Positions 6,601 through 20,253 of a stretch of DNA of 20,253 nucleotides are shown piece after piece. The translations under genes were made by a program, and so were the position numbers. Source of the stretch: Thermoanaerobaculia bacterium (GTDB lineage Bacteria; Acidobacteriota; Thermoanaerobaculia; Multivoradales; UBA5704); NCBI GenBank assembly GCA_044226625.1, contig JBGAGQ010000087.1, positions 1 to 20,253 of the forward strand. The letters are read 5' to 3'. Every line of letters begins with the position of its first letter. The stretch's first letter is position 1. The notes under the pieces were generated by a model. It saw only the letters and a program-made list of their open reading frames with translations. It made no database searches and was not told where the DNA came from.

Positions 6601-9600
6601 CGAAAGCGCCGTCGGGCGCTCGACGTCGGCGAGGCGGGCGCGGAACCACTCTTGCGCCTCCGTCGCATCGGCGGCGTCGTGGCGCTCGATCCAGGCGATG
6701 TAGTCGCGGAACGGACGCGGGCGCGGAGGGTCGATCGCAGGACCCGAAACTTCGGCCGCGTAGAACGCCATCGCCTCGTTGAGCACCAGCGGCAGCGACC
6801 AGCCGTCGACCACCAGGTGGTGGTGAATCCACGCGAAGCGGTGCGAGCGCTCGCCGGTGCGGACCAGGACGAAGCGCACCAGCGGTCCGACCGGCAGGTC
6901 GAACGGCCGATCCCCCTCTTCGATCAGGAAGCGGTCGACCTCGCGCCGCGCCTCGGCGCTCTTTTCCCGCCAATCGTGGCTCTCGACCGGCACCGCGACC
7001 TGGCGGCGCACCAGCTGCAACGGACGGGCGAGGTCGCGCCAGACGAAGCCGGTGCGGAAGATCGGATGGCGGTCGACCACCCGCTGCCAGGCGCGGCCGA
7101 ACGCCGCGAGGTCGAGATCCCCTTCGAGGGAGACCCGCAGCTGCTGCGAGTATATCCCAGCCCCTCCTTCGAGGGTGTGGAAGAGGAGCCCCTGCTGGAG
7201 CGGCGAGAGCGGATAGAGGTCCTCGATCTCGCGCGGCGAAACCGTCGGCACCACCGCAATGACCTGCTCGAGCGCCGCCTCGTCGAGCCGGGCAAGCGGG
7301 AAGTCGGAGGGCGCGACGCCGCCGGCTTCCGGACGCCGGCAGTGCTCGACGATGCCGAGCAGCTCGGCGCGGAAGAGCGCGGCGAGCCGCTCGATCGAGT
7401 CGCGCCGGTGGACGCGTCGACCGAACAGGATCGCAACCTCCATGCGGCTGCCCGCGACGCTCGCCGAGACGTCGAGCAGATGGGTGCGCGGCTGATCGGG
7501 CGCGCGCTCCGGGCCCGGGTTCTCCCGCGCGCCCGCCAGCAGGCCGCCCGCGGCGAGCGCTTGGTCGAGCTGCCCCAGGTAGTTGAAGCTGATCTCGGAG
7601 CGGCCCGAGCGGCGGATCGCCTCCAGGTCCTCGGCGGCGCAGTCGCCCGGCGCGCTCCGCAGGTACTTGAGCGGGCCGAAACCGAAGCCGCGCTCGGGGA
7701 TCGCGCGGAGCGTCTCCTTGACCGCGAGCAGCGTGCGCGATGGATCGCCCGGATCGAGCGGATCGCGTCCCGCCCGCGGGCTGAGGTCGATCGACACCGG
7801 ATGGATCGCGGTAAACCAGCCGACCGTGCGCGACAAGTCGAGGTCGTCGGCGAACTCCTCGCGGCCGTGCGCTTCGAGGTCGAAGCGGAGCAACGAGGCC
7901 TCCTGGCCCCTCCGCGATCTCCCCGGGATCTCGTCGATCCATCGGCCCCAGGCGCGGGCGAACGCGGCGATGAGCGCGTCGTTGATCTGCGTCCGGTAGA
8001 CCGGCGGCACCTCCTGGAGCAGCGCGCGGGTCTCGCCCTCGTCGAGGTGCAGGGCGACCACGTCCGCGTCGGCCGCGAGGTTCGAGCCCGCCTCGCGCGC
8101 GTCGGCGAAATCGACCGGGATCGCTTCGGCCGGACGCGCCATCCGCGCCCAGAACGGGACCTCCGCGGCGAGCGCCTCGCCGTCGGCGCGCTCGGCCAAG
8201 CGCTCGCCCCACTGGCGCAGCGAGGTGGTCTTCGGCGGCAGCGCCGGCTCTTCGCCGCGCGCGAGTGCGCCATAGACGGCCTCCAGGTCCTCGAGCAGCA
8301 GACGCCACGAGACGCCGTCGATCACCAGGTGGTGGGCGACGACGAGCAGGCGGTCGCGTTCGCTCTCACCCTGCGGGCTCATGCGGACGAGCGCGAGGCG
8401 CGCGACCGGTCCGGTTTCGAGGTCGAGGCTGCTCTGGATGCGCGCCGCCGCGGCTTCGAGCGCGGCCGGCCGCTCGCCGACGGACAACGGCGAGAGGTCG
8501 ACGACCGAGAACGCCCCGGAAGGACCCGGCTCTTCGATTCGATGCGACCAGCCATCCGCCGTGCGGACGAAGCGCGAGCGGAGCGCGTCGTGATGCTCGA
8601 ACAGCCGCTCGACCGCGAGCGAGAGGACCGCGGCGTCGAGCGGCCGGACCGCTTCGAGCAGGACCGACTGGTTCCACCACGAGACCGACGGGAGATCGAG
8701 ATCGAAGAACCAGCGGGCGATCGGCGCGAGCGCGACCTCGCCCACCACCGCCCCCTGCTCGGCGGCGATCTCGCTCCCCTGCTCGCCGATCGCCGCGAGC
8801 TCGGCGATGGTCTGGAACTGGAAGACCTGGCGCGCGGTCAGGCGCAGTCCGACGCGCGCGGCGCGCGAGATGATCTGGATCGACAGGATCGAGTCGCCGC
8901 CCAGCTCGAAGAAGTTGTCGAAGATCCCCACCCGCTCGACCCGCAGCAGCTCCCGCCAGATCTCGGCGAGCGCCCGCTCCGCCTCGTTGCGCGGCGCCGA
9001 GTACGAGGTTTCGAGCGCCGGCCGCGCGGCCTCCTCGGGCGCCGGCAGCGCCTTCCGGTCGAGCTTGCCGTTCGCGGTGACCGGCAGCGCGGCGAGCGCC
9101 ACGAACGCCTGCGGCACCATGTACTCGGCGAGCCGCGACTGGACGAAATCGCGCAGCTCGCCGACGGTTGGCTCTTCGACGCCGGAGCGGAAGACGACGT
9201 AGGCGACCAGCCGGCGATCCGGCCGCGCCCCCGCCTCCATGCTTTCGACCTCGCGCGCGAGCACCACCGTCTCGCGGACCGCGGGGTGCTGGGAGAGGAC
9301 CGCCTCGATCTCCCCCAGCTCGATGCGGAAGCCGCGTACCTTGACCTGGAAATCGCGCCGGCCGAGGAACTCCAGATTGCCGTCCGGCAGATAGCGCGCG
9401 CGATCGCCGGTCGCGTACATCGTGGCGCCCGGCGTCGCGCCGAACGGGTCGGCGACGAACTTGCTCGCCGAGAGCGCGGGCTCGGCGGCGTAGCCCGAGG
9501 CGAGCACCGACCCAGCGATATAGAGGTCGCCCGGTACGCCGATCGGACACGGGGCGAGCCGCGCGTCGAGCACGTGGTAGCGCGCGTTCGCGATCGGCCG

Positions 9601-12600
9601 GCCGTACGGGATGCTGGTCCAGCCGGGCGGCACGACGCCCACGGGGAAGAAGTTCGACCAGATCGCCGCCTCCGTGGCGCCGCCGAGCGCGATCACCCGC
9701 GCTTTGGGAAACGCCCTGCGCACCCGGTCGGGAAGCGTCACGGGGATCCAGTCGCCGGAGAGGAAGACCAGCCGCAGCCTCGAGCGCGCGCCGCGCGGAT
9801 CGCCACCGCCGGGGAAGAAGCCGGCGATCTGGCGCAGCGCCGCGGGCGCGGAATCCCAGAACGTGATCGGCTCGTCGCAGAGGATCGCGACCATCCGCTC
9901 CGGGTCGTGGATCTCCTCCTCCGTCGCGACCCGGATCGATCCCCCGGCGGCGAGCAGGCCAAAGACGTCGTAGACCGAGAGGTCGAAGCAGAGCGAGGTG
10001 ACGAACAGCACGCGGTCCGAAGCGCCCACCGCGTGGGTCTCGTTCACCCACTCGATCAGGTTCTGGACCGGGCGGTGACGGAGGACCACGCCCTTCGGGG
10101 TACCGGTCGAGCCCGAGGTGAAGATCACGTAAGCGACGTCGTCCGGCGTGCCGAGCGGCGCCGGCCGCGCGGCGGAGACCGCGCGCAGCTCGGCGTACGA
10201 GGTCAACCACGCCGGCCCCTCGCCGTCGATCGGCGCATCGTCCACCGCGAGCAGGTGGGTGAGCGCGGGGTAACGTTCCGCGATCTGCTGGAGGGCCGCG
10301 ACGTGCCGACCACCCGCGATCGCCGCCCGCACGCCGAGCGCCTCCATCATGAAGCGCACGCGCGCCTCCGGGAAGCTCGGTTCGAGCGGCAGATACCCCG
10401 CCCCCGACTTGAGCACGCCCAAGAGCGCCGGGATCATCGCGAGCCCGCGCGAGAGATAGATCGCGACCATGTCGCCCGGACCGAGCCCGAGCGCGCGCAG
10501 CCGATTCGCGATCCGGTTCGCCTCGGCCTCGACCTCGCCGTAGGAGAGCGTCGCGGCACCGCACACCGCGGCGAGGCGCGAGGGGTCCTCGTCCGCCCGG
10601 CGCTCGAACAGCCGTTCGAGCCGAACCGGGGCCGGCGCTGCGACGAGCGCCGTATCGTTCCACTCGAATAGCAGTTGGTGGCGCTCTGCGGCCGAGGCGT
10701 TCGGCAGGTCGGCCCAGGAGCGGTCGGGGTTCTCGACCGCCGCGGCGAGCAACGCCCGATACCGCTCGCCGAAGCGTTCAAGCGTCGCACCGTCGAACAG
10801 GTCGGTCGCGTACTCGAACGACACCGACAGACCGTTCGACGCCTCGGTGGTCGAAAGCGTGAAGTCGAACTTCGCCGTGCCGCTCGACGCGTAGAGCGGC
10901 GCGGAGGCGAGGCCCGCGAGCTCGATCCCTTCGGTCGCCTCGGCCTGGAGCAGGAACATCACCTGGAACAGCGGGTTCCGGCTCATGTCGCGCTCGACTT
11001 CGAGCACGTCGACCAGGCGCTCGAACGGCACGTCCTGGTGGGCCGAAGCGCCGAGCAGCGTCTCGCGCACGCGGCCGAGCAGCTCCGCGAACGTCGGGAC
11101 CGCGGGCTCGCCGGCCAGCCGCGCGCGCAGCACCAGGGTGTTGACGAAGTAGCCGATCAGAGGCTCGACCTCGCGCCGGTTGCGCCCGCCGATCGGCGTG
11201 CCGACCAGCAGGTCGTCCTGCCCCGAGGTCTTCGCCAGCAGCACGTCGAAGGCGGCGAACAGCGTCATGAACAGCGTCGCGCGCCGCTCGCGGCCGAGCC
11301 GGCGGAGCGCGTCGAGGAACGGCGCGGGCAGGACGAACGGCCGGGTGATCGTACCGCGGTAGCTCGGCACCGGAGGCCGCGGCCGGTCGGTCGCGATTTC
11401 GAGCGTCGGCGGCTGGGCGAGCTCGCGCTTCCACCAGTCGACCTGTTCTTCGATCTGCGCGGCAAGGCTCTCCCGCTGCCAGACCGCGTAGTCGGCGTAC
11501 TGGATCGGCAGCTCGGGGAGCGGCGACGGACGGCCGGCGGCAAGCTCGGGATAGAGCGCCGCCACCTCGCGCATCATCACCTCGGTTGACCAGCCGTCGG
11601 ATACGTTGTGGTGCGCCGAAAGCAGGACGCCGTGGTCGTCCTCCGAGAGACGCCAGAGGAACGCCTTGAAGAGCGGACCGGCGGCCAGGTCGAACGGCTT
11701 CGCCGCCTCGATCGAGACCTCACGGTAGAGCCGCCGCTCGCGCTCCACCTCCGGCAGGTCGCTCAGGTCGCGCAGCTCGACCGAAAAATCGCCCGGCGGC
11801 GCGATCACCTGGATCGGCCGGCCGTCCGCGACCGCGAACGTGGTACGCAGCACGTCGTGGCGACGCACCACCTCGGCGATCGCCCGCTCCATCGTCGCGA
11901 CGTCGAACCCGCCCTTGAGGCGGAGCGCGACGGGGATGTTGTAGACCGACTGCCCCAGTTCGAGCTGATCCAGGAACCAGAGGCGCTGCTGCTGGAACGA
12001 CAGCGGCAGCGCGCGCTCGCGCCCGGCGGGGACGATCGGCGGCAGCGCCGCCGCGCCTCCCGCGCGCAGCTCGTCGATGCGCGCGGCGAGGCGCGCGAGG
12101 ACCGGCTTTTCGAACACGTCGCGCAGCGGCAGCTCCACCTGGAACGCCTCGCGTACCCTGGAGACCAGCCGCGCCGCGAGCAGAGAATGGCCGCCGAGAG
12201 CGAAGAAATCCGCCTCGGCGCTCGGATCGTGGGCGCCGAGGAGGTCCGTCCAGAGGGCGGCCAAAAGCTCCTCGCTCGCGCCGCGCGGCGCCACGTGGAG
12301 CCCTTGGCGTTCCTCTCCCCGATCCGGGGCGGGCAGAGCGCGCCGGTCGACCTTGCCGTTCGGCGACAGCGGCAGCGCGTCGAGCAGGACGAACGCGCGC
12401 GGCACCATGAACTCGGGCAACTCGCGGCCGAGCGCCGCGATCGCAGTCTCGACCCAACCCTCGCGGCGCGCCGCGTCGGCCAAGACCACGTAGGCGACGA
12501 GCGAGGCGCCCGACGCCTCCTCGCGAGCGACGACCACCGCTTCGCGCACTTCCGGCCGGGCGGTGAGCGCGGCTTCGATCTCCCCCAGCTCGATGCGGAA

Positions 12601-15600
12601 GCCGCGGATCTTCACCTGATGATCGAGCCGCCCGAGATATTCGATCTCGCCGGTCGGGAGCAGACGCGCGAGGTCGCCGGTGCGGTAGAGCCGCGCCCCC
12701 GGCTCGCCAGAGACCGGATCGGGCACGAAGCGCTCCGCCGTGAGGTCGGGCCGGTAGAGGTAACCGCGCGCGAGCTGCACGCCGCCCAGGAGCAGCTCTC
12801 CGCCGACGCCGAGCGGAGCCGGCATGAAAGCGCGGTCGAGGACGAACGTCCGCACGTTCGAGATCGGCCGGCCGATCGGAACGATCCGCCGCTCGCCGGC
12901 TTCGACCCCGTTCGGGACCGGATACCAGGTGACGTCGACGGCCGCTTCGGTCGGGCCGTAAAGGTTGTGCAGCCGCACGCCGTACGGCCGACCCAGCCGC
13001 TCGGCGAAACGCCGCGCGAGATCGGGCGGCAGCGCCTCGCCGCTCGCGATCACCCGTCGCAGCCCGGCCGCGCGCTCGAGGCCCGGCGCTTCGAGGAAGA
13101 TCTGGAGCATCGACGGCACGAAGTGGAGCGTCGTCACCCTCTCGCGCTCGATCAGGTCGAGCAGATAGGCGGGGTCCTGATGCCCGGCCGGGCGCGCGAC
13201 GACCAACCGCGCTCCGACCTGCAAGGGCCAGAAGAACTCCCAGACCGAGACGTCGAACGAGAACGGCGTCTTCTGGAGCACCACGTCGTCGGCACCGAGT
13301 GGGAACGCCTCCTGCATCCAGCGCAGGCGGTTCGCGATCGCGCGGTGGGCGTTGATCGCTCCCTTCGGACGGCCGGTCGAGCCCGACGTGAAGATCGCGT
13401 AGGCAGCCGAGAGGTCCGAAGCGGGCGCAACGCTCGATTCGACGTCGCCCGGAGCGTCGCTCTCGCCGCCGTCGAGCGGCACGAGGCGGGTCGAGGCGGG
13501 CACGAGCGCCGCCAACTGCTCCATCCGGTCGGCGTCAGCGCCCCCGGGGCCTCCGGCGATCCCCGCCAGCACGACGGGAAGCCGCGCGTCGGCGATCATG
13601 AAGCGCAGGCGCTCCTCGGGGTAGGACGGATCGAGCGGCACGTAAGCCGCTCCGGCGATCTCGATCGCGACGAGGGCGATCACCATCTCGAACGACCGTT
13701 CGGCGAGCACGCCGACCAGGTCGTCCGTGCCGACGCCGAGCGCGGCCAGACGCCGCGCGAGCGCGCGTGCCCGACGGTCGAGATCGCGGTAGCTCAGGGT
13801 CTCGGATTCGAACGTAAGCGCGGGCGCCTCGGGTGTGGCGCGGACCTGGACGGCGATCTGGTCGGCGAGCCGCTCGCCCACCTCTCGCGGCAACTCCGTG
13901 TCGTTCCACTCGACGACCGACTGGTGCGCCTCGGCGGGGCGGAGCATCGGCAGGCGGTCGAGCCGCGCTTCCGGCGCGGCGACCGCCGCTTCGAGCAGCG
14001 CCTCGAAATGGCCGACGAGCCGCTCGGCGGTCGCTCCGTCGAACAGGGCGGTGGCGTAGCGCAGCGATCCCGTGAGCTGGCCGTCCCGCTCCTCCAGGGC
14101 GAGGTGGAGGTCGAACTGCACGGTGCTCTCGTCGAACGCCGCGGCGTAGACCGCAAGCCCCGGCAGCTCGAGGGTCTCCTGCGGCGTGTTCTGGAGCACC
14201 AGCGCGACCTGGAACAACGGGTTGAACGCGAGCGAGCGCTCGACGCCCAGGGCGTCGACCAACCGCTCGAACGGCAGCTCCTGGTGGCCGTACGCGGCGA
14301 GCGAACGGCGGCGCACCTGCTCGAGCAGCTCGGCGAACGTGGCCGGCCCCTCGACCCGCGTCCGCAGCACGAGCGTGTTGACGAACAGGCCGATGATCGG
14401 CTCGGTCTCGGGAAGCGTCCGGCCGGCGATCGGCGTGCCGACCGCCACGTCGCCCTGGTTCGACCAACGCGAGAGGACCGTGGCGAAGCCCGCGAGCAGC
14501 GCCATGTAGAGCGTCGCCCCCCGCTCGCGCGCGAGCGGCTCGAGCGCCGCGGTGAGCGCGCGCGGCAGCCGCACCTGACGGATGCCGCCGTGATAGCTCT
14601 GGACCGGCGGTCGCGGGCGGTCCGCGGCGATTTCGAGCACGGCGGGGAGGCCCGACAGCTCGGCGCGCCAGAAATCGATCTGCCTTTCGAGCGTCTCGCC
14701 CGAGAGCCAGCCGCGCTGCCAGACCGCGTAGTCGGCGTATTGGATCGGCAGCGGCGGAAACTCCGGCTCTTCGCCCCCGACGAAAGCCGCGTACCCTGCG
14801 GCGATCTCGCGCACCAGGATGCCCATCGACCAGCCGTCGGAGGCGATGTGGTGCATCGCAAACAGCGCCCGGTGCTCGCGCTCGGCGAGCTTGACCAACG
14901 CGGCGCGCACCACCGGCCCGCGCGCGAGGTCGAACGGCCGCGACAGCTCCGCGTTCGCGATCCGGCGCGCCTCCATGGCGCGCGCGTTCGGCGACTCCGC
15001 GGATCCCATCGCGGAGAGATCGACGAGCGGGATCGCGACGGCCAGCCCTGAAGATGCGGGTTCCACCTTCTGCACCGGCAGGCCGTCGACCTCACCGTAA
15101 GTCGTCCTCAGGGCCTCGTGACGGGCGACCACGGCGGCGAGGCTCGCCGAAAGCGCGGGGACCGACAGCTCGCCCGCGAGCGTGAGCGTCGTGGGGATGA
15201 CGTAGGCGGCGTTACCCGGCTCCAGCCGATCGAGGAACCAGAGGCGCTCCTGGGCGAACGAGAGCGGGGGCTCGACGTCCGCCGACCGCCGCGCGAGCGG
15301 AATCCGTTCGTCGACGTAGGCGCGGCCGAGCGACCGGTCGAGCCACGGCGCGAGCTCGGCCGGGGTGGACAGGCGGAACAGCTCGGCCAGCTCCAGATCG
15401 ACGCCGAACGTCCGGCGTAAGCGCGAGACCGCCTGGGTCGCGAGCAGCGAATGGCCGCCGAGGTCGAAGAAGCTGTCGAACGCGCCGACCCTCGGCACCG
15501 AGAGAACCTCGGCGAAAACGTCGGCGATCATCTCCTCGACCGGCGTGCGGGGTGCGACGTAAGCCCCCGTCTCGGCGCGCCGCGCGACGAGACGCCCGCC

Positions 15601-18600
15601 GTCGGCCGTGGCGGGCATCTGCGGCATCTGCGGCATCTGCGCATTGAGCGCGCGGGCGAGCGCCGACCCGGCCCGCGTCCCGGTCCGCTCGTAACCCCGG
15701 ACCGCGGCGCGCTCGTCGAAGCGCCCGAGAAGCTCCAGCCCGCCGTCCGCACCAAAGCGCGCAAGCTCGCCGGTCCGGTAGACCCGGCTATTTTCCGTGC
15801 CGCCATCGGGGAGGAATCGGAAGGCGCTCCGCTCGACACCCGCTTCGAGGCCGAAGCCCTTGTCGGCAGGGGCCGAGAGCCACAGCTCGGCCGCGACACC
15901 GATCCGTGTCGGCCGGCCCTCCGCGTCGAGCACGTAGGCGCGCGTGCCGGGAGCGGGCGCGATCTCGGTCGCGCCGAGGCGAAGCGGCGACGGCAACGCG
16001 CGCGGATCGACCGCGCTCCATTCGACCGCGAGCTGCTGGCGCTCGGCGGGCGAGAGCAGGAGCGCCCGCTCGTGGCGCGCCTCGGGATCGCCCGCCATCT
16101 CGAGCAGGATGCGCAGGTAGAGGTCGTAGATCGCCTGCCCCTCGGCGCGCGGGATCTCGTTGCGGTCGTGCGCGAGGTCGAGGCTCAGGTCGTCGGTGAG
16201 CGGGTTCTGGACGAAGCCGATCGACAGCGTGAAGTTCGTCTCCTCGGACTTCTTGAAACCGCGCACCTGGATCTCGCCCGCGGTGAGGATCTCGCTCACG
16301 ACGTGGAAGTGCGTGAAGTTGAACAGCACCTCGAACAGCGGTCGGTCGCCGAAATCGCGCTGCAGCTCGGCGAGCGGGAAACGGCGGTGGACCATCATCT
16401 CCGCCTCGGCGGCGAAGACACGCGAGATCAGCTCGCGCCAACTGCCCGGCTCGATCTGGAACCGGAACGGCATCGTGTTCAGGAACAGGCCGCGCGTCTC
16501 GTCCGACCGAGCGATCTCGGGGCGCCCATGCGTCACCACGCCGGAAAGCAGATCCGTGGCCGCGGTGAGGACCGAGAGCATCTTGAGGTGCGCGGCGAGG
16601 CAGACGGTCCTGAGCGGCACGCCCGAGAGCGTGGCGAGCCGTTTCAAAGCGTCCGAGAGCCCCGGCGGGAAGAGCGGCGCGATCGCCTCGACGCGCGGGC
16701 CGACGCGCACCTCGGGCTTCGGCCAGCGCGGCACCAGGAGGAGCGGCGCGTCGTCGAGCTGCCCTTCCCAGTAGGCGCGCGCGGTAGCGCTCGCCGCCGC
16801 CTCGCGTTCGAGCGCCACGAACTCGCGGTAAGGAACGGGCGGCGGCGGCTCGACCTCCGGATGCCTCCCCGCGGCGAGCGCGGAGTAAAGCGAGAACATC
16901 TCCGTCAGGGTGGAATGCAGGCTCCAGCCGTCCAGGATCGCGTGGTTCTCGGTGAGCGTCAGTTGGAAGGACTCCGCCCCGCGCAGGTGAACGAACATGC
17001 GCAGTTGCGGCGCTCTCCGGAGGTCGAAATGCCGGTGCTTCTCGCTCTCGACGAAGCGGTCGATCTCCGCTTCCTGGGCGTCGAACGGGAGCAGCCGCAG
17101 GTCCGCCACGCCGATCGGCAGGCGCACCGAGTCGGGACGATGGACGACCTGGATCGGCTCGGAGAACGCGGCGAACTCGAACGACGTGCGGAGCACCGCG
17201 TGGCGCGCGAGCGTCCGACCGACCGCCTCGCGAAACGCCGCGGCGGCGAACGGCGCGCCGTAGAGGTAGATGCTGTTGACGTTGTGGTACGCGGCGTCGG
17301 CCGACATCCGCTCCATGTGGTAGAGCATGCCCGCCTGCATCCGCGCGAGCGGATAGGCGTCTTCGAGGTCGTCGAACGCGCGATCGACCCTCTCCCGGTC
17401 GACCGGCGAAAGCAGCGAGAACGGTGTGCTCTTGAGGCCCTGGACCACGGCGACAGCCGGACCGGCGAGGTCGAGGCTGGCCGCCAGCTCGGCGATGGTC
17501 GGATGTTGGAAGAGCTGCGGAATCGACACCTCGATGCCGCGGTTGCGCGCGTGGGCGATCAGCTGGATGCTGCGGATCGAATCGCCGCCGAGCGCGAAGT
17601 AGTTGTCGGTCACCCCGACCCGCTCGAGGTCGAGCACCTGGCACCAGATGTCGGCGAGCGTCCGCTCGGCCTCGGTGCGCGGCGCGACATAGCCGCCGCC
17701 GAGGTCGGGGCGGCTTGCCTCCGGCGCGGGCAGCGCACGGCGGTCGACCTTGCCGTGCTCGGTGAGCGGAATCCGGTCGAGCAACATGAACACGGCCGGA
17801 ACCTCGTGCTCGGGAAGCCGGCCGGAGAGGTGCGCCCGCAGATCCGAGACCGTGGGGGCGCTCTCGGCGCCCTTCGGGACGACGTAGGCAACCAGGCGGA
17901 CGCCGCCCCCCACGTCGTCGGCGCGCGCGAGCACCACCGACTCGGCGACCCGCGGATGGGTGTCGAGCGCCGCCTCGATCTCCCCCAGCTCGATGCGGAA
18001 GCCGCGGATCTTCACCTGGTGGTCGATCCGGCCGAGGTACTCGACGTCGCCGTTCGGCAGGAGGCGCGCGAGGTCACCCGAACGGTAGAGGCGCGCGCCC
18101 GACTCCGGGGCGAACGGATCGGGGACGAAGCGCTCGGCCGAGAGCGCAGGCCGGTTCAGGTACCCGCGGGCGACGCCCGCGCCGCCCACGAACAGCTCGG
18201 CCGGAGCCATCAGCGGCGCGGGCTGAAGGTAGGCATCGAGTAGGAACAGCGAGAGGTCGGGAATAGGCCCGCCGATCACGCTGCCCGACGCCTGCTTGAG
18301 GTCGACGGCGGCGATCGGCCGATAGGTCACGTGTACGGTCGTCTCGGTGATGCCGTACATGTTGATCAGGCGCGGCCCTCGGCCCGAGGAATCCGCCGTG
18401 CCGTCGCCGTAACGCTCGAACCAGGGGGCGAGGCTCTGCAGCTCCAGCGCCTCGCCGCCGAAGATCACCGCTCTCAAGGGCAGCTTCGGCCCCGGCGCCT
18501 CGGCGTCGGCGCGGATGAGCTGCCGGAACGCCGAAGGCGTCTGCGACAGCACGCTCACCTTCTCCCTCTTGAGCAGCGCGCGGAACGCTTCGGGCGTCCG

Positions 18601-20253
18601 GCTCACCAGGTACGGGACGACCACCAGGCGCCCACCGTAGAGGAGCGCGCCCCAGATCTCCCAGACCGAGAAGTCGAACGCGAACGAGTGGAACAGCGTC
18701 CAGACGTCCTTCGCTCCGAAGCCAAACCAATCGTCGGTCGCGAGGAACAGACGCATCGCCGCCGCGTGGGAGACCACCACGCCCTTCGGCTGGCCGGTCG
18801 AGCCCGAGGTGTAGATCACGTAGGCGGCGTTTTCCGGCCCCGCGCCGGTTCCGCCCTTGGGAGCTCGGCGTGCTCCCGCGTGCGGTGCCTCGTCCAGGCG
18901 GAGGATCGGAAGGTCGCTGCCGAGCAGCTCGGCGGGCAGCTTCTCTTCGAGGCCCCGATGCGTGACGAGCACCGTGGCGCCGCTGTCCCGGAGCAGGAAT
19001 TCGAGGCGCGAGGCGGGATACGCCGGGTCCATCGGCACGTAGCAACCGCCCGCCTTGAGCACGCCGAGAATCGCGACCGGAATGTCGGCCGATCGTTCGA
19101 GCAGGAGCCCGACGCGCGATTCGACTCCGACGCCGAGCGCTGCGAGCCTCCGGGCGAGGGCATCCGACAACTGATCGAGCTTCGCGTAGGACAGCCGCAT
19201 CGGCGTTTCGCCGTTGGCCGGATCGACCACCGCGGTCGCCCGCGGCGTCGCCCGGGCGTGCGCGGTGAAGCGCTCGTGGAGCGTCTGCTCGACCGCGTGC
19301 TCGCGGCGATTCGCGGTGCGGATCGCCTGCGCTTCCTCGCTCGGGCTCAGGTAGGAGAGCGCGGCGTGATGCGCAAACGGATCGGCCGCCATCGCCTCCA
19401 CCACCCTGCGGTAGTAGTGGTGCATCCGCTCGACCTGCTCGGTTGCGAGGTAGGGGTCGTTCTTCTCGAGCGTCAGACTCACCATCGCTTCCGAGATCGG
19501 ATCGCGCGAGAACGTCGCGGCGAGCGGGAAGTGGGTGACCGAAAGGTCGCTGTGTCCTCCCTGGCCGGAGACCGCGACCGAGCCCGTGCCGAGCACGCCG
19601 TGGACCGCGTGGAAATGGAGGTAGCTGAACGCCGACTCGAACAGCACCTGGCCGCCGCGCAAGCGCTGGATCGCGACCAGCGGATAGCGGCGATAAGGAA
19701 TCAGCTCGAGCTCGCTCGCGAACGTGCGCTTCACCAGATCGACCCAGGAGCCCGAGCCGAGCTCGAGCCGGAACGGCAGCGTGTTCAGGAACAGGCCGCG
19801 CACGTCGTCGCCGTCGGCCTCTTCCTGGCGCCCGTGAGTGGTGAGCCCGGTCACCACGTCGGAGCGGCCGTTCACCCGGCCCATCACCTTCAGGTGGGCG
19901 GCGAGCAGCGTGCTCTTGAGCGGTGCGCCGGCCTCGGCCGCCAATCGCTCCAGCCCTTCGACAATACGTAGGTCGTAATGCTCGGTCGGCTTGTGATCGG
20001 TTCCCGGCGGGTCGACGTGCGGGCCCCCCGGCCAGCGCGGTAGCCGCTCGACGTCGAGCGCGTCGAGCTTGCCGCGCCAGAAAGCCTGCGCCTCGGGCGA
20101 GGCGAGGATCTTCCGTTCGAGGAAGACGAAGTCGCGATAGGTGGTGCCGAGCGGCGGCCGTTCCGGCGGCGCCTCGCCGCGGACGATCGCGAGATAGTTC
20201 TCGAAGATCTCCGACAGCGTCGACATCGTGCTCCAGCCGTCCGAGATCGCGTG
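1..20253 (-). CDS. Giant multimodular NRPS, partial at both ends (>6751 aa; six carrier domains in the window)
   Basis: NRPS core motifs translate in one minus-strand frame from end to end: HAISDGWS at 20230-20253, five YxxY/FTSGSTGxPKG A3 loops, six GG(D/H)S carrier motifs and the Cy motif FPLTDLQQAYWIG at 622-660. I found no stop in the stretches I translated, and the ORF track lists no minus-strand ORF ending in this frame. The long plus-strand ORFs are in exact antisense codon register. Confidence 0.97.
748..963 (-). other. T domain
   Basis: DDFFALGGHSLLATRL; Ser codon at 856-858. Confidence 0.95.
1006..2556 (-). other. Adenylation domain, Thr-type (canonical code DFWNIGMVHK)
   Basis: AYVIYTSGSTGRPKG, FHSFAFDFSVWEIWG, VTVLNQTPSAF, VIFGGE, NMYGITETTVHVT, LPLGPTGKLDR. 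Confidence 0.93.
2680..3981 (-). other. Condensation domain 6, LCL type with HHxxxDL variant
   Basis: PLSFAQQRLWFLEQM, RHEVLRT, MHHIATDLWS (HHIATDLWS at 3544-3570), QYADFAAWQR, IGLFVNT. Confidence 0.92.
4051..4272 (-). other. T domain
   Basis: DGFFDLGGHSLMATQVISRL; Ser codon at 4162-4164. Confidence 0.95.
4309..5835 (-). other. Adenylation domain, Pro/cyclic imino acid type (code read as DVQLDAQVVK)
   Basis: AYVLYTSGSTGRPKG, NLIAWQ, QFASLSFDVSCQELF, ERVLLPFVALQQLAE, EIDTAGEQL, HNQYGPTEAHVVS, TPSGKVDR. Confidence 0.8.
5950..7230 (-). other. Condensation domain 5, DCL type
   Basis: EDLYPLSPLQQGLLFH, RHPIFRTGF, WIHHHLVVDGWS (6796-6831), GRPPEL..MVGMFINT, LFESVLVFENYP; directly follows the E domain. 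Confidence 0.93.
7321..8745 (-). other. Epimerization (E) domain
   Basis: LAPIARWFF, WNQSVLL, HHLVIDGVSW (8305-8334), LPPKTTS, DLEAHGRE, DLSRTVGWFT, KETLRAIPERGFGF, SFNYLGQ, followed by PSDFPLA. Confidence 0.95.
8788..8997 (-). other. T domain, epimerase-associated GGDSI type
   Basis: DNFFELGGDSILSIQI; Ser codon at 8890-8892. Confidence 0.95.
9040..10620 (-). other. Adenylation domain, Cys-type (code read as DLYDFSLIWK)
   Basis: AYVIFTSGSTGTPKG, SLCFDLSVYDVFG, ITFWDSAPAAL, VFLSGDWIP, ALGGATEAAIWSN, SIPYGRP. SGDWIP and LGGATE..IWS are Cys A-domain hallmarks. Confidence 0.82.
10732..12009 (-). other. Condensation domain 4, LCL type
   Basis: PLSFQQQRLWFLDQL, RHDVLRT, AHHNVSDGWS (HHNVSDG at 11593-11613), QYADYAVWQR, IGYFVNT. 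Confidence 0.92.
12070..12288 (-). other. T domain
   Basis: ADFFALGGHSLLAARL; Ser codon at 12184-12186. Confidence 0.95.
12331..13881 (-). other. Adenylation domain, Ser-type (code read as DVWHISLVDK)
   Basis: AYAIFTSGSTGRPKG, NRLRWMQ, LQKTPFSFDVSVWEFFWPL, TTLHFVPSML, VIASGE, NLYGPTEAAVDVT, SPNGKVDR. Confidence 0.92.
13981..15270 (-). other. Condensation domain 3, LCL type
   Basis: PLSFAQERLWFLDRL, RHEALRT, MHHIASDGWS (HHIASDG at 14833-14853), QYADYAVWQR, IGLFVNT. Confidence 0.93.
15337..15552 (-). other. T domain of the A-less module
   Basis: DSFFDLGGHSLLATQAVSRL; Ser codon at 15448-15450. Confidence 0.95.
15571..16020 (-). other. Truncated pseudo-adenylation domain (A*), about 150 aa
   Basis: After the C-A linker (LLSPAERQQLAVEW) the chain jumps directly to AYVLDAEGRPTRIGVAAELWL (A6 remnant), YRTGELARF (A7, D->E) and LELLGRFDERAAVRGY (decayed A8). 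There is no A1-A5, no TSGSTG loop and no A10 Lys. Confidence 0.9.
15614..15640. repeat. 9-bp tandem repeat (GGCATCTGC)x3, encoding QMPQMPQMP on the minus strand
   Basis: ggcatctgc occurs at 15614-15622, 15623-15631 and 15632-15640. Confidence 0.9.
16081..17364 (-). other. Condensation domain 2, dehydrating CmodAA type, active site TENHAILDGWS
   Basis: PFSLL linker then EDAYPLARMQAGMLYH, RHAVLRTSFEFAAFSEPIQVVH, LTLTENHAILDGWS (ENHAILDGWS at 16921-16950), CLAAHLKML, THGRPE, RGLFLNTMPFR, HRRFPLAELQR, FNFTHFHV, EETNFTL. Confidence 0.88.
17473..17682 (-). other. Peptidyl carrier (T) domain, GGDSI type
   Basis: DNYFALGGDSIRSIQL; phosphopantetheine Ser codon at 17578-17580. Confidence 0.95.
17722..19290 (-). 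other. Adenylation domain, Thr-type (code read as DFWSIGMVHK)
   Basis: LSYAKL, AYVIYTSGSTGQPKG, FHSFAFDFSVWEIWG, VSVLSQTPSAF, VIFGGE, NMYGITETTVHVT, PLTEHGKVDR. Confidence 0.9.
19378..20253 (-). other. Condensation domain 1 (N-terminal part outside window), dehydrating/modified-amino-acid (CmodAA) type
   Basis: HAISDGWS, YRDFVFLER, LKSTLLAAHLKV, TGLTTHGRQE, RGLFLNTLPFR, PYRRYPLVAIQR, FESAFSYLHFH, THFPL. These match the McyA/NdaA/AmbE/BlmVI-type clade rather than LCL. Confidence 0.8.

Follow-up and report, generated by a model that had tools for sequence, protein, structure and literature searches.

A CmodAA-type module that has lost its adenylation domain in a predicted lipopeptide line of a Thermoanaerobaculia bacterium, and the domains that may charge its carrier

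Modules of nonribosomal peptide synthetases (NRPSs) that lack an adenylation (A) domain of their own are already known, and the one described here resembles several of them. It lies at 15337-17364 of a window of 20,253 nucleotides, the whole of contig C95 (JBGAGQ010000087.1) in the assembly of a Thermoanaerobaculia bacterium (GCA_044226625.1, hereafter G000), and consists of a condensation (C) domain, a decayed piece of an A domain and a carrier (thiolation, T) domain. By analogy it would belong with the thalassospiramide type: Ttm and Ttc are hybrid lines of NRPS and polyketide synthase (PKS) with A-less modules, no stand-alone A domain nearby and carriers charged by the A domains of other modules (10.1101/560987; PMC10510592), and in the account of these loci in 10.1101/560987 two modules of Ttm are A-less with no stand-alone A domain close by, while in Ttc a downstream A domain loads an upstream T domain. 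Loading was shown there by mutation whereas here it is predicted; the descriptions cited speak of neither a CmodAA domain nor an A remnant, and the present module is not taken to involve skipping or pass-back. It would also resemble the C-A*-T modules of kutzneride KtzH and glidonin GdnB, described as carrying a partial, non-activating A domain (A*) between an active C domain and T (PMC10587159). In the same description the glidonin A* keeps the small subdomain, its termination module takes free putrescine, and the KtzH module is served by the stand-alone KtzN, whereas the present module is internal, keeps a remnant of A6-A8 but not the small subdomain, and lies in a cluster with no stand-alone A gene.

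AmbE likewise has a CmodAA domain followed by a carrier without a working A domain, and reports on it describe both loading in trans (of Ala, by AmbB) and thioester transfer (PMC10880069; PMC4357302). AmbE, however, is described as terminal, with a thioesterase (TE) domain, and as acting on a modified Glu (PMC10880069), whereas the present module is internal, is followed by LCL-A(Ser)-T and would use a Thr donor. The initial annotation had credited AmbE with a CmodAA-pseudo-A-T layout, which these accounts do not support, giving Q-A-MT-T1-C-T2-TE instead (PMC10880069; PMC4357302). In WS9326A biosynthesis Cal19 is an internal C-T module without A, but is said to need clustered A-T didomains (Cal22/Cal23) and shuttle thioesterases (PMC7539972; PMC10510592), none of which is found in this cluster. 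With McyA C2 and the AlbB-type domains the C domain shares its signature residues, a preceding Thr module and a GGDSI carrier, although here its own module is without A. Neither this cluster nor an internal CmodAA-remnant-T module was found described in the literature searched, which was largely open-access and without supplements.

On balance, and with modest confidence, we think that another A domain of the same line charges the orphan carrier, most likely the Ser domain next door. The module would once have been an ordinary CmodAA-A-T unit of a lipopeptide line, a FAAL-primed NRPS-PKS hybrid, until two in-frame deletions removed the A domain but for an A6-A8 piece that would since have decayed into a spacer. 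The CmodAA domain, going by what is known of its family, would dehydrate the upstream Thr to dehydrobutyrine (Dhb) and then join the chain to an amino acid that the orphan T has received from elsewhere in the line. Loading by the adjacent Ser domain would yield Dhb-Ser-Ser, the product predicted for the orthologous cluster G006; loading by the upstream Thr domain would yield Dhb-Thr, as predicted for the orthologous clusters G002 and G003; and possibly both occur, as congeners.

The class of the C domain was assigned from its best solved-structure match and its signature motifs, and both point to the dehydrating-type CmodAA, the label that it had been given at the outset. The best match is McyA (E 8e-114), the AmbE C domain scores 3e-50, and DCL and LCL entries lie far below. 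The CmodAA signature, as given in PMC11342130, includes [K/R]SVLLAAH and a pair of Arg residues; RTVCLAAH fits the former, the pair is present in HRRFP, and NHAILDG keeps the DG and the second His. The active site ENHAILDG, which is HHxxxDG with its first His replaced by Asn, is the same in the orthologues G006, G081 and L014, and this variant is common in this bacterial family. The C domain follows a module with the A code DFWSIGMVH and a GGDSI carrier. A-domain codes were read from the sequence and residue names assigned from specificity tables, by which we take the upstream code to mean Thr and the downstream code, DVWHISLVD, to mean Ser.

Pfam matches in the module comprise Condensation (residues 1-445) and PP-binding (613-672), with no AMP-binding match between 15337 and 17364 up to E 0.1. 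From C to T there are 167 residues, compared with 526-553 in four orthologues, to which the earlier estimate of about 150 codons against about 520 comes close. Three pieces make up the gap: 18 residues of linker, a stretch of about 92 residues that can be aligned to A6-A8, and a low-complexity linker of 41 residues. AELWLS marks the start of A6, YRTGE stands for YRTGD, the Asp of A7 thus being replaced by Glu, and GRFDERAAVRGY forms the A8 hinge, from which the Lys is gone. Alignment confirmed that A1-A5 (with the substrate pocket), A9 and the A10 Lys are deleted in frame, that only remnants of A6-A8 are left, and that the carrier has an intact LGGHSL motif (Ser codon 15448-15450), much as initially proposed. 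The second linker contains an in-frame 9-base repeat in three copies (QMP x3, 15614-15640); the genome has 11 perfect arrays of this sort in all, and the unit of this one occurs nowhere else and is without a GATC core. The AlphaFold model is confident over the C domain, with a pLDDT of 22-63 over the remnant and below 50 over T, which the alignment barely covers. Third-position GC is slightly low in the remnant (0.84), a weak signal, 2 of 222 windows being equally low.

Orthologues were collected by searching 92 genomes of the family with the C domain; G098 was added by a search with the preceding C domain. The four close matches to the C domain of the module are in G006 (72% identity), G081 (69%), G003 (62%) and G002 (59%). 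All five readable orthologous clusters (G006, G002, G003, G081 and G098) are collinear with that of G000 and have a full A domain at the slot, and L014, a closer orthologue from a metagenome (about 80% identical), stops about 50 residues short of the remnant. At 27 of 29 CmodAA loci of the family a full A domain comes next; of the other two, one is interrupted by the end of its contig and the other leads into a second C domain. With a full A domain in all five orthologues and at 27 of the 29 loci, the loss is lineage-specific. The slot A codes are DVWHISLVD in G006 (the same as in its next module), DFWNVGMVH in G002 and G003, DLFNSALTY in G081 and DASTIAAVC in G098, presumably Ser, Thr, Ala and Tyr-like, respectively; slot specificity already varies among the orthologues. 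The A core has been described as a recombination hotspot (PMC8097286). In G098 (L070, C35) the LCL domain after the slot has an in-frame insertion of about 56 residues past the active site, and the cluster copies of G081 and G098 contain several frame breaks.

The initial annotation had suggested looking for homologues that keep the same deletion; relatives, metagenomes and proteins yielded none. It was absent from the 92 family genomes and from 401 genomes of the class, from the genome and metagenome scans, and from protein searches by length class (lengths below 371 aa and of 3,381-3,712 aa being uncovered). Two longer matches to remnant plus T, in G005 and G024, proved to be unrelated deletions of the small subdomain, and a Nocardia locus considered as a second carrier is an ordinary module.

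The module is real, its A loss is old and not inactivating, and the line is probably functional. Columns were counted as invariant when invariant in the other four of G000, G006, G081, G002 and G003, with G098 and L014 excluded. Over A6-A8, G000 keeps 25 of 44 invariant residues (57%), compared with 89-100% in the others, and the same stretch in its two neighbouring A domains keeps 97-98%. The CmodAA domain keeps 217 of 240 (90%; 93-97% in the other four), T 38 of 44 (86%; 93-100%) and the next LCL domain 212 of 240 (88%; 89-97%), the remnant differing from T with a Fisher p of 0.004 and from C with p 4e-7. A simple simulation puts the decay of the remnant at about 0.25 neutral changes per site, by which time a dead frame of this length (6,751 codons) should have gathered about 97 stops; the frame, a single minus-strand NRPS frame that spans the window and is open at both ends, contains none. 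At its ends the window overlaps other contigs (1-781 with C45, 19230-20253 with C67); the DNA there is 93-94% identical and almost every change is silent, which indicates that two strains of the cluster are mixed in the bin. These strain overlaps at the two gene ends give dN/dS values of 0.016 (1,024 bp) and 0.16 (781 bp), one with pS 0.24 and pN 0.005, the other with pS 0.15 and pN 0.027, and pairwise pN is so low that both strain lineages must be constrained. Because the remnant has decayed more than its flanks while stops are absent and selection is purifying, the line stayed selected during the decay and C and T are still in use. Of the adverse case foreseen at the outset, intact A domains in orthologues together with a recent inactivating deletion, the former was found in five of five clusters and the latter is contradicted by the decay and selection data.

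Other A domains have been lost, or are being damaged, in the same cluster family beside neighbours of the same code. G002 has a bare C-T module between two DAIWQGQVI domains, and G081 has three bare C-T modules. In G000 the third module of the protein at C67 20899-34389 (-) (L068) has an A domain without about 27 residues just past the A5 motif YGP; this deletion takes the conserved A5 Glu and two code positions, the flanking A domains have nearly the same code, and G002 has a bare C-T module in the matching run. Elsewhere in G000, C-T-C-T runs stand beside Ala-code A domains at C6 524-16165 and C31 36865-44826, and at C113 2-10120 only a tiny A6-A8 scar, and no carrier, separates one C domain from the next.

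For a wider comparison, 375 distinct proteins retrieved by likeness to the C domain were parsed (P0002-P0151 and P0272-P0496; 120 others were left out). Short C-T modules were found for 12 of 386 CmodAA, 20 of 957 LCL and 2 of 171 DCL domains, so that A loss is not enriched in CmodAA modules relative to LCL (p 0.32). Three of the 12 A-less CmodAA-T modules are followed by an epimerization (E) domain, seven by a CmodAA-class domain, and two end the protein; an E or CmodAA domain at the next position, as in 10 of the 12, implies a new residue on T. P0075 is an independent CmodAA-A*-T-E case with the same A6-A8 type of remnant, and P0013 and P0453 have CmodAA-T-E. Six proteins (P0317, P0336, P0337, P0344, P0362, P0387) share the layout C-A(Ser)-T-CmodAA-T-CmodAA, with first CmodAA domains 45-71% identical; three are named as from Streptomyces or Kitasatospora, and five have a non-canonical second T motif.

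Loading from within the line would agree with the slot contents of the orthologues. Both neighbouring A domains carry a specificity that some orthologue uses at the slot, Ser, Thr and Ala-like A domains are all present in the line, and the downstream A domain shares its code with the slot domain of G006, the closest complete orthologue. The remnant is 51% identical to the slot domains of G006 (Ser) and G081 (Ala) and 35-37% to the Thr ones. Several points weigh against this reading or against the choice of the Ser domain. The top alignment score of the remnant among 93 A6-A8 regions, 169.5 for the G006 slot domain, is closely followed by Ala-type domains at 168; in a tree of 94 such regions, for which the careful search was unfinished, the remnant sits on a branch of 2.07 with weak support, too long and unsupported to be of use for ancestry. 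T and the linker after it are closer to the Thr-slot orthologues (76/73% vs 65/68%), and earlier examples of inter-module loading, as summarized in 10.1101/560987, were limited to upstream domains serving downstream modules, which favours the Thr over the Ser domain. In G098 the stretch from the Thr to the D-Cys module is one module shorter, which means that the family tolerates a shorter product. The 12 A-less CmodAA-T modules are not independent (two of the E cases are 76% identical, and a single layout accounts for six, five of which lack a canonical T motif). A search of 41 relatives with remnant plus T found no second genome with the same deletion. The C, T and next C domains of G000 have the lowest values of the five, which may reflect mild relaxation, and the strain that gave the overlaps may or may not carry the A deletion.

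The loading options listed by the initial annotation, namely a stand-alone A or A-T protein bringing a specially made residue, reuse of a neighbouring A domain, and a station that adds no residue, turned out to be the right set; reuse fits best and the station stays under consideration, while the special residue is unsupported, given that neither flank of the cluster holds such a gene and that the slot takes ordinary residues in the orthologues. Were no residue added, the CmodAA domain would dehydrate the Thr-ended chain and hand it by thioester exchange to the empty T, and the LCL domain would join the Dhb chain to Ser, giving a product one residue shorter than that of G006. We regard this as rather unlikely. 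It has a precedent in AmbE, which is described as dehydrating on T1 and handing the product to T2 by transthioesterification (PMC10880069), it would keep C and T under selection without a loader, none of which stands alone in the cluster, and G098 is naturally one module shorter at this point. The AmbE case, however, ends in a TE domain, and AmbB is reported to load its T2 with Ala in trans as well (PMC4357302). The next LCL domain gives no sign of having adapted to a dehydro donor, its identity to G006 (70%) showing no visible shift from the control pair G006/G081 (69%); the A-less CmodAA-T modules found elsewhere mostly precede domains acting on a new residue, CmodAA modules are not enriched for A loss, and a clean A-T-C deletion would presumably give the same product more simply.

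That a stand-alone A or A-T protein loads T in trans, with or without a type II thioesterase shuttle, in the style of kutzneride or WS9326A, appears quite improbable. Neither a stand-alone A or A-T gene nor a thioesterase gene, all of which had been named as things to seek, was seen in the cluster flanks (C74 start, C45 end). The sole stand-alone thioesterase above cut-off in G000 adjoins its one MbtH gene and a phosphopantetheinyl transferase gene on contig C84, an operon in which no A gene stands alongside among the frames listed, and the lone A-T-TE protein on contig C76 has its own TE and the unusual code NPRSRGGTV. The assembly consists of 133 contigs, so that a loader gene could be missing from it, and a non-functional A* has been described as critical for KtzN-mediated transfer (PMC10587159), but the small subdomain, present in the glidonin A*, is missing from the remnant here, which is decaying rather than conserved. 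We give equally little credence to the deletion having broken the line, leaving a young pseudogene cluster or truncated products only. The intact A domain in every readable orthologue, the lack of another carrier of the deletion and the damage to a second A domain upstream would fit such a failure; against it stand a remnant decayed far beyond its flanks, the absence of stops where about 97 are expected, purifying selection at the far downstream end, and a pN low enough to imply constraint on both lineages. An assembly artefact, a collapse or chimera that removed the A domain in silico, is very improbable indeed, even with at least two strains of the cluster in the bin (93-94% overlaps), an estimated contamination of 5.5%, and no listed contig from another study that spans the remnant. 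A collapse cannot make a diverged remnant with unique linkers: G000 contains no near-identical copy of the remnant, which is only 31-51% identical to intact A domains, and a diverged piece without a near-identical source makes collapse unlikely. In addition, sequencing run X1, which may be the source sample itself, holds 0.92 of 282 sampled words of 15000-17700, and one of its contigs covers 15646-16036 with 0 differences, extending only 22 bases on the C side of the first linker and stopping before T. Runs X2 and X3 and the RNA run X4 hold 0.05-0.16 of the sampled words, and the pieces listed from them miss the remnant. The collapse that would have undone the deletion is therefore not borne out by the X1 contig and the unique, diverged remnant.

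Which A domain serves the orphan carrier, the upstream or the downstream one, matters for product prediction and NRPS engineering, and the module bears on the role of the carrier after a CmodAA domain, as loaded in trans or as a relay. For known A-less modules the loader is usually guessed, whereas the sister genomes here show the former slot content (Ser, Thr, Ala, Tyr-like). As the line holds a second A domain at an earlier stage of decay, it offers a natural case for the shedding of redundant A domains. If the chain were merely relayed, the locus would be a clean test of CmodAA thioester transfer inside a line, and together with the five sister clusters that have the full module it would form a before-and-after series of product shortening without module deletion.

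Table 1. Features of the A-less module and its neighbours (positions in the window).
Feature	Position	Strand	Remark
Upstream A domain, code DFWSIGMVH	17749..19269	-	predicted donor residue for dehydration; candidate loader
Upstream carrier, GGDSI type, predicted to present Thr-ended chain to CmodAA	17479..17661	-	
CmodAA condensation domain (predicted to dehydrate), active site ENHAILDG	16030..17367	-	217/240 orthologue-invariant residues kept
First in-frame scar, short linker replacing A1-A5	15967..16014	-	
Decayed A6-A8 remnant, ~92 aa	15691..15966	-	25/44 orthologue-invariant residues kept
Second in-frame scar, low-complexity linker replacing small A subdomain (A9-A10)	15568..15690	-	
Orphan carrier (T), LGGHSL	15346..15531	-	38/44 orthologue-invariant residues kept
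Downstream LCL condensation domain	13924..15267	-	70% identical to G006
Downstream A domain, code DVWHISLVD	12352..13857	-	leading candidate loader

The domain order in the window is CmodAA-A-T-CmodAA-A*-T-LCL-A-T-LCL-A-T-E-DCL-A-T-LCL-A-T-Cy. The cluster around it was reconstructed from end overlaps that join contigs C74, C67, C95 and C45 (140 bp at 100%, 1,024 bp at 93% and 781 bp at 94%). In this order it starts with a FAAL-like A-T, five NRPS modules and a PKS module ending in C, continues with two modules ending in C-TauD and a degenerate-C-A(Asn)-T protein, and closes with the large protein of the window, which finishes in Cy-A(Cys)-T-TE. It is predicted to be an orphan lipopeptide line whose product would contain dehydro residues, D-Cys and a terminal thiazoline. 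A HYR-domain gene lies upstream (C74 start), and a short-chain dehydrogenase/reductase (SDR), a MacB/FtsX permease, a cyclic-peptide exporter and an unnamed protein lie downstream (C45 end). In G000, G002, G003 and G081 alike the exporter is followed by this unnamed gene (L061:9114-11081 (-); L049, L051, L054), which encodes 580-650 aa including a twin-arginine-like stretch; the two copies scanned gave no Pfam or NCBIfam match.

A predicted D-Cys module, two C domains predicted to form dehydro residues and the terminal Cy-A(Cys)-T-TE occur together in one line (window 8790-10608 and C45 2-4057), for which thioether or disulfide chemistry is possible. Further upstream, a C-TauD fusion (G000:C67 2-13783 (-)) precedes the Asn-activating protein, whose degenerate C domain is of the interface type, and then a CmodAA domain with EPHAISDG (window 19330-20253). 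Interface domains have been described in PMC13638107. This run suggests that Asn is beta-hydroxylated and then either dehydrated to dehydro-Asn or modified in some other way, and the arrangement is kept in G002, G081, G098 and L014.

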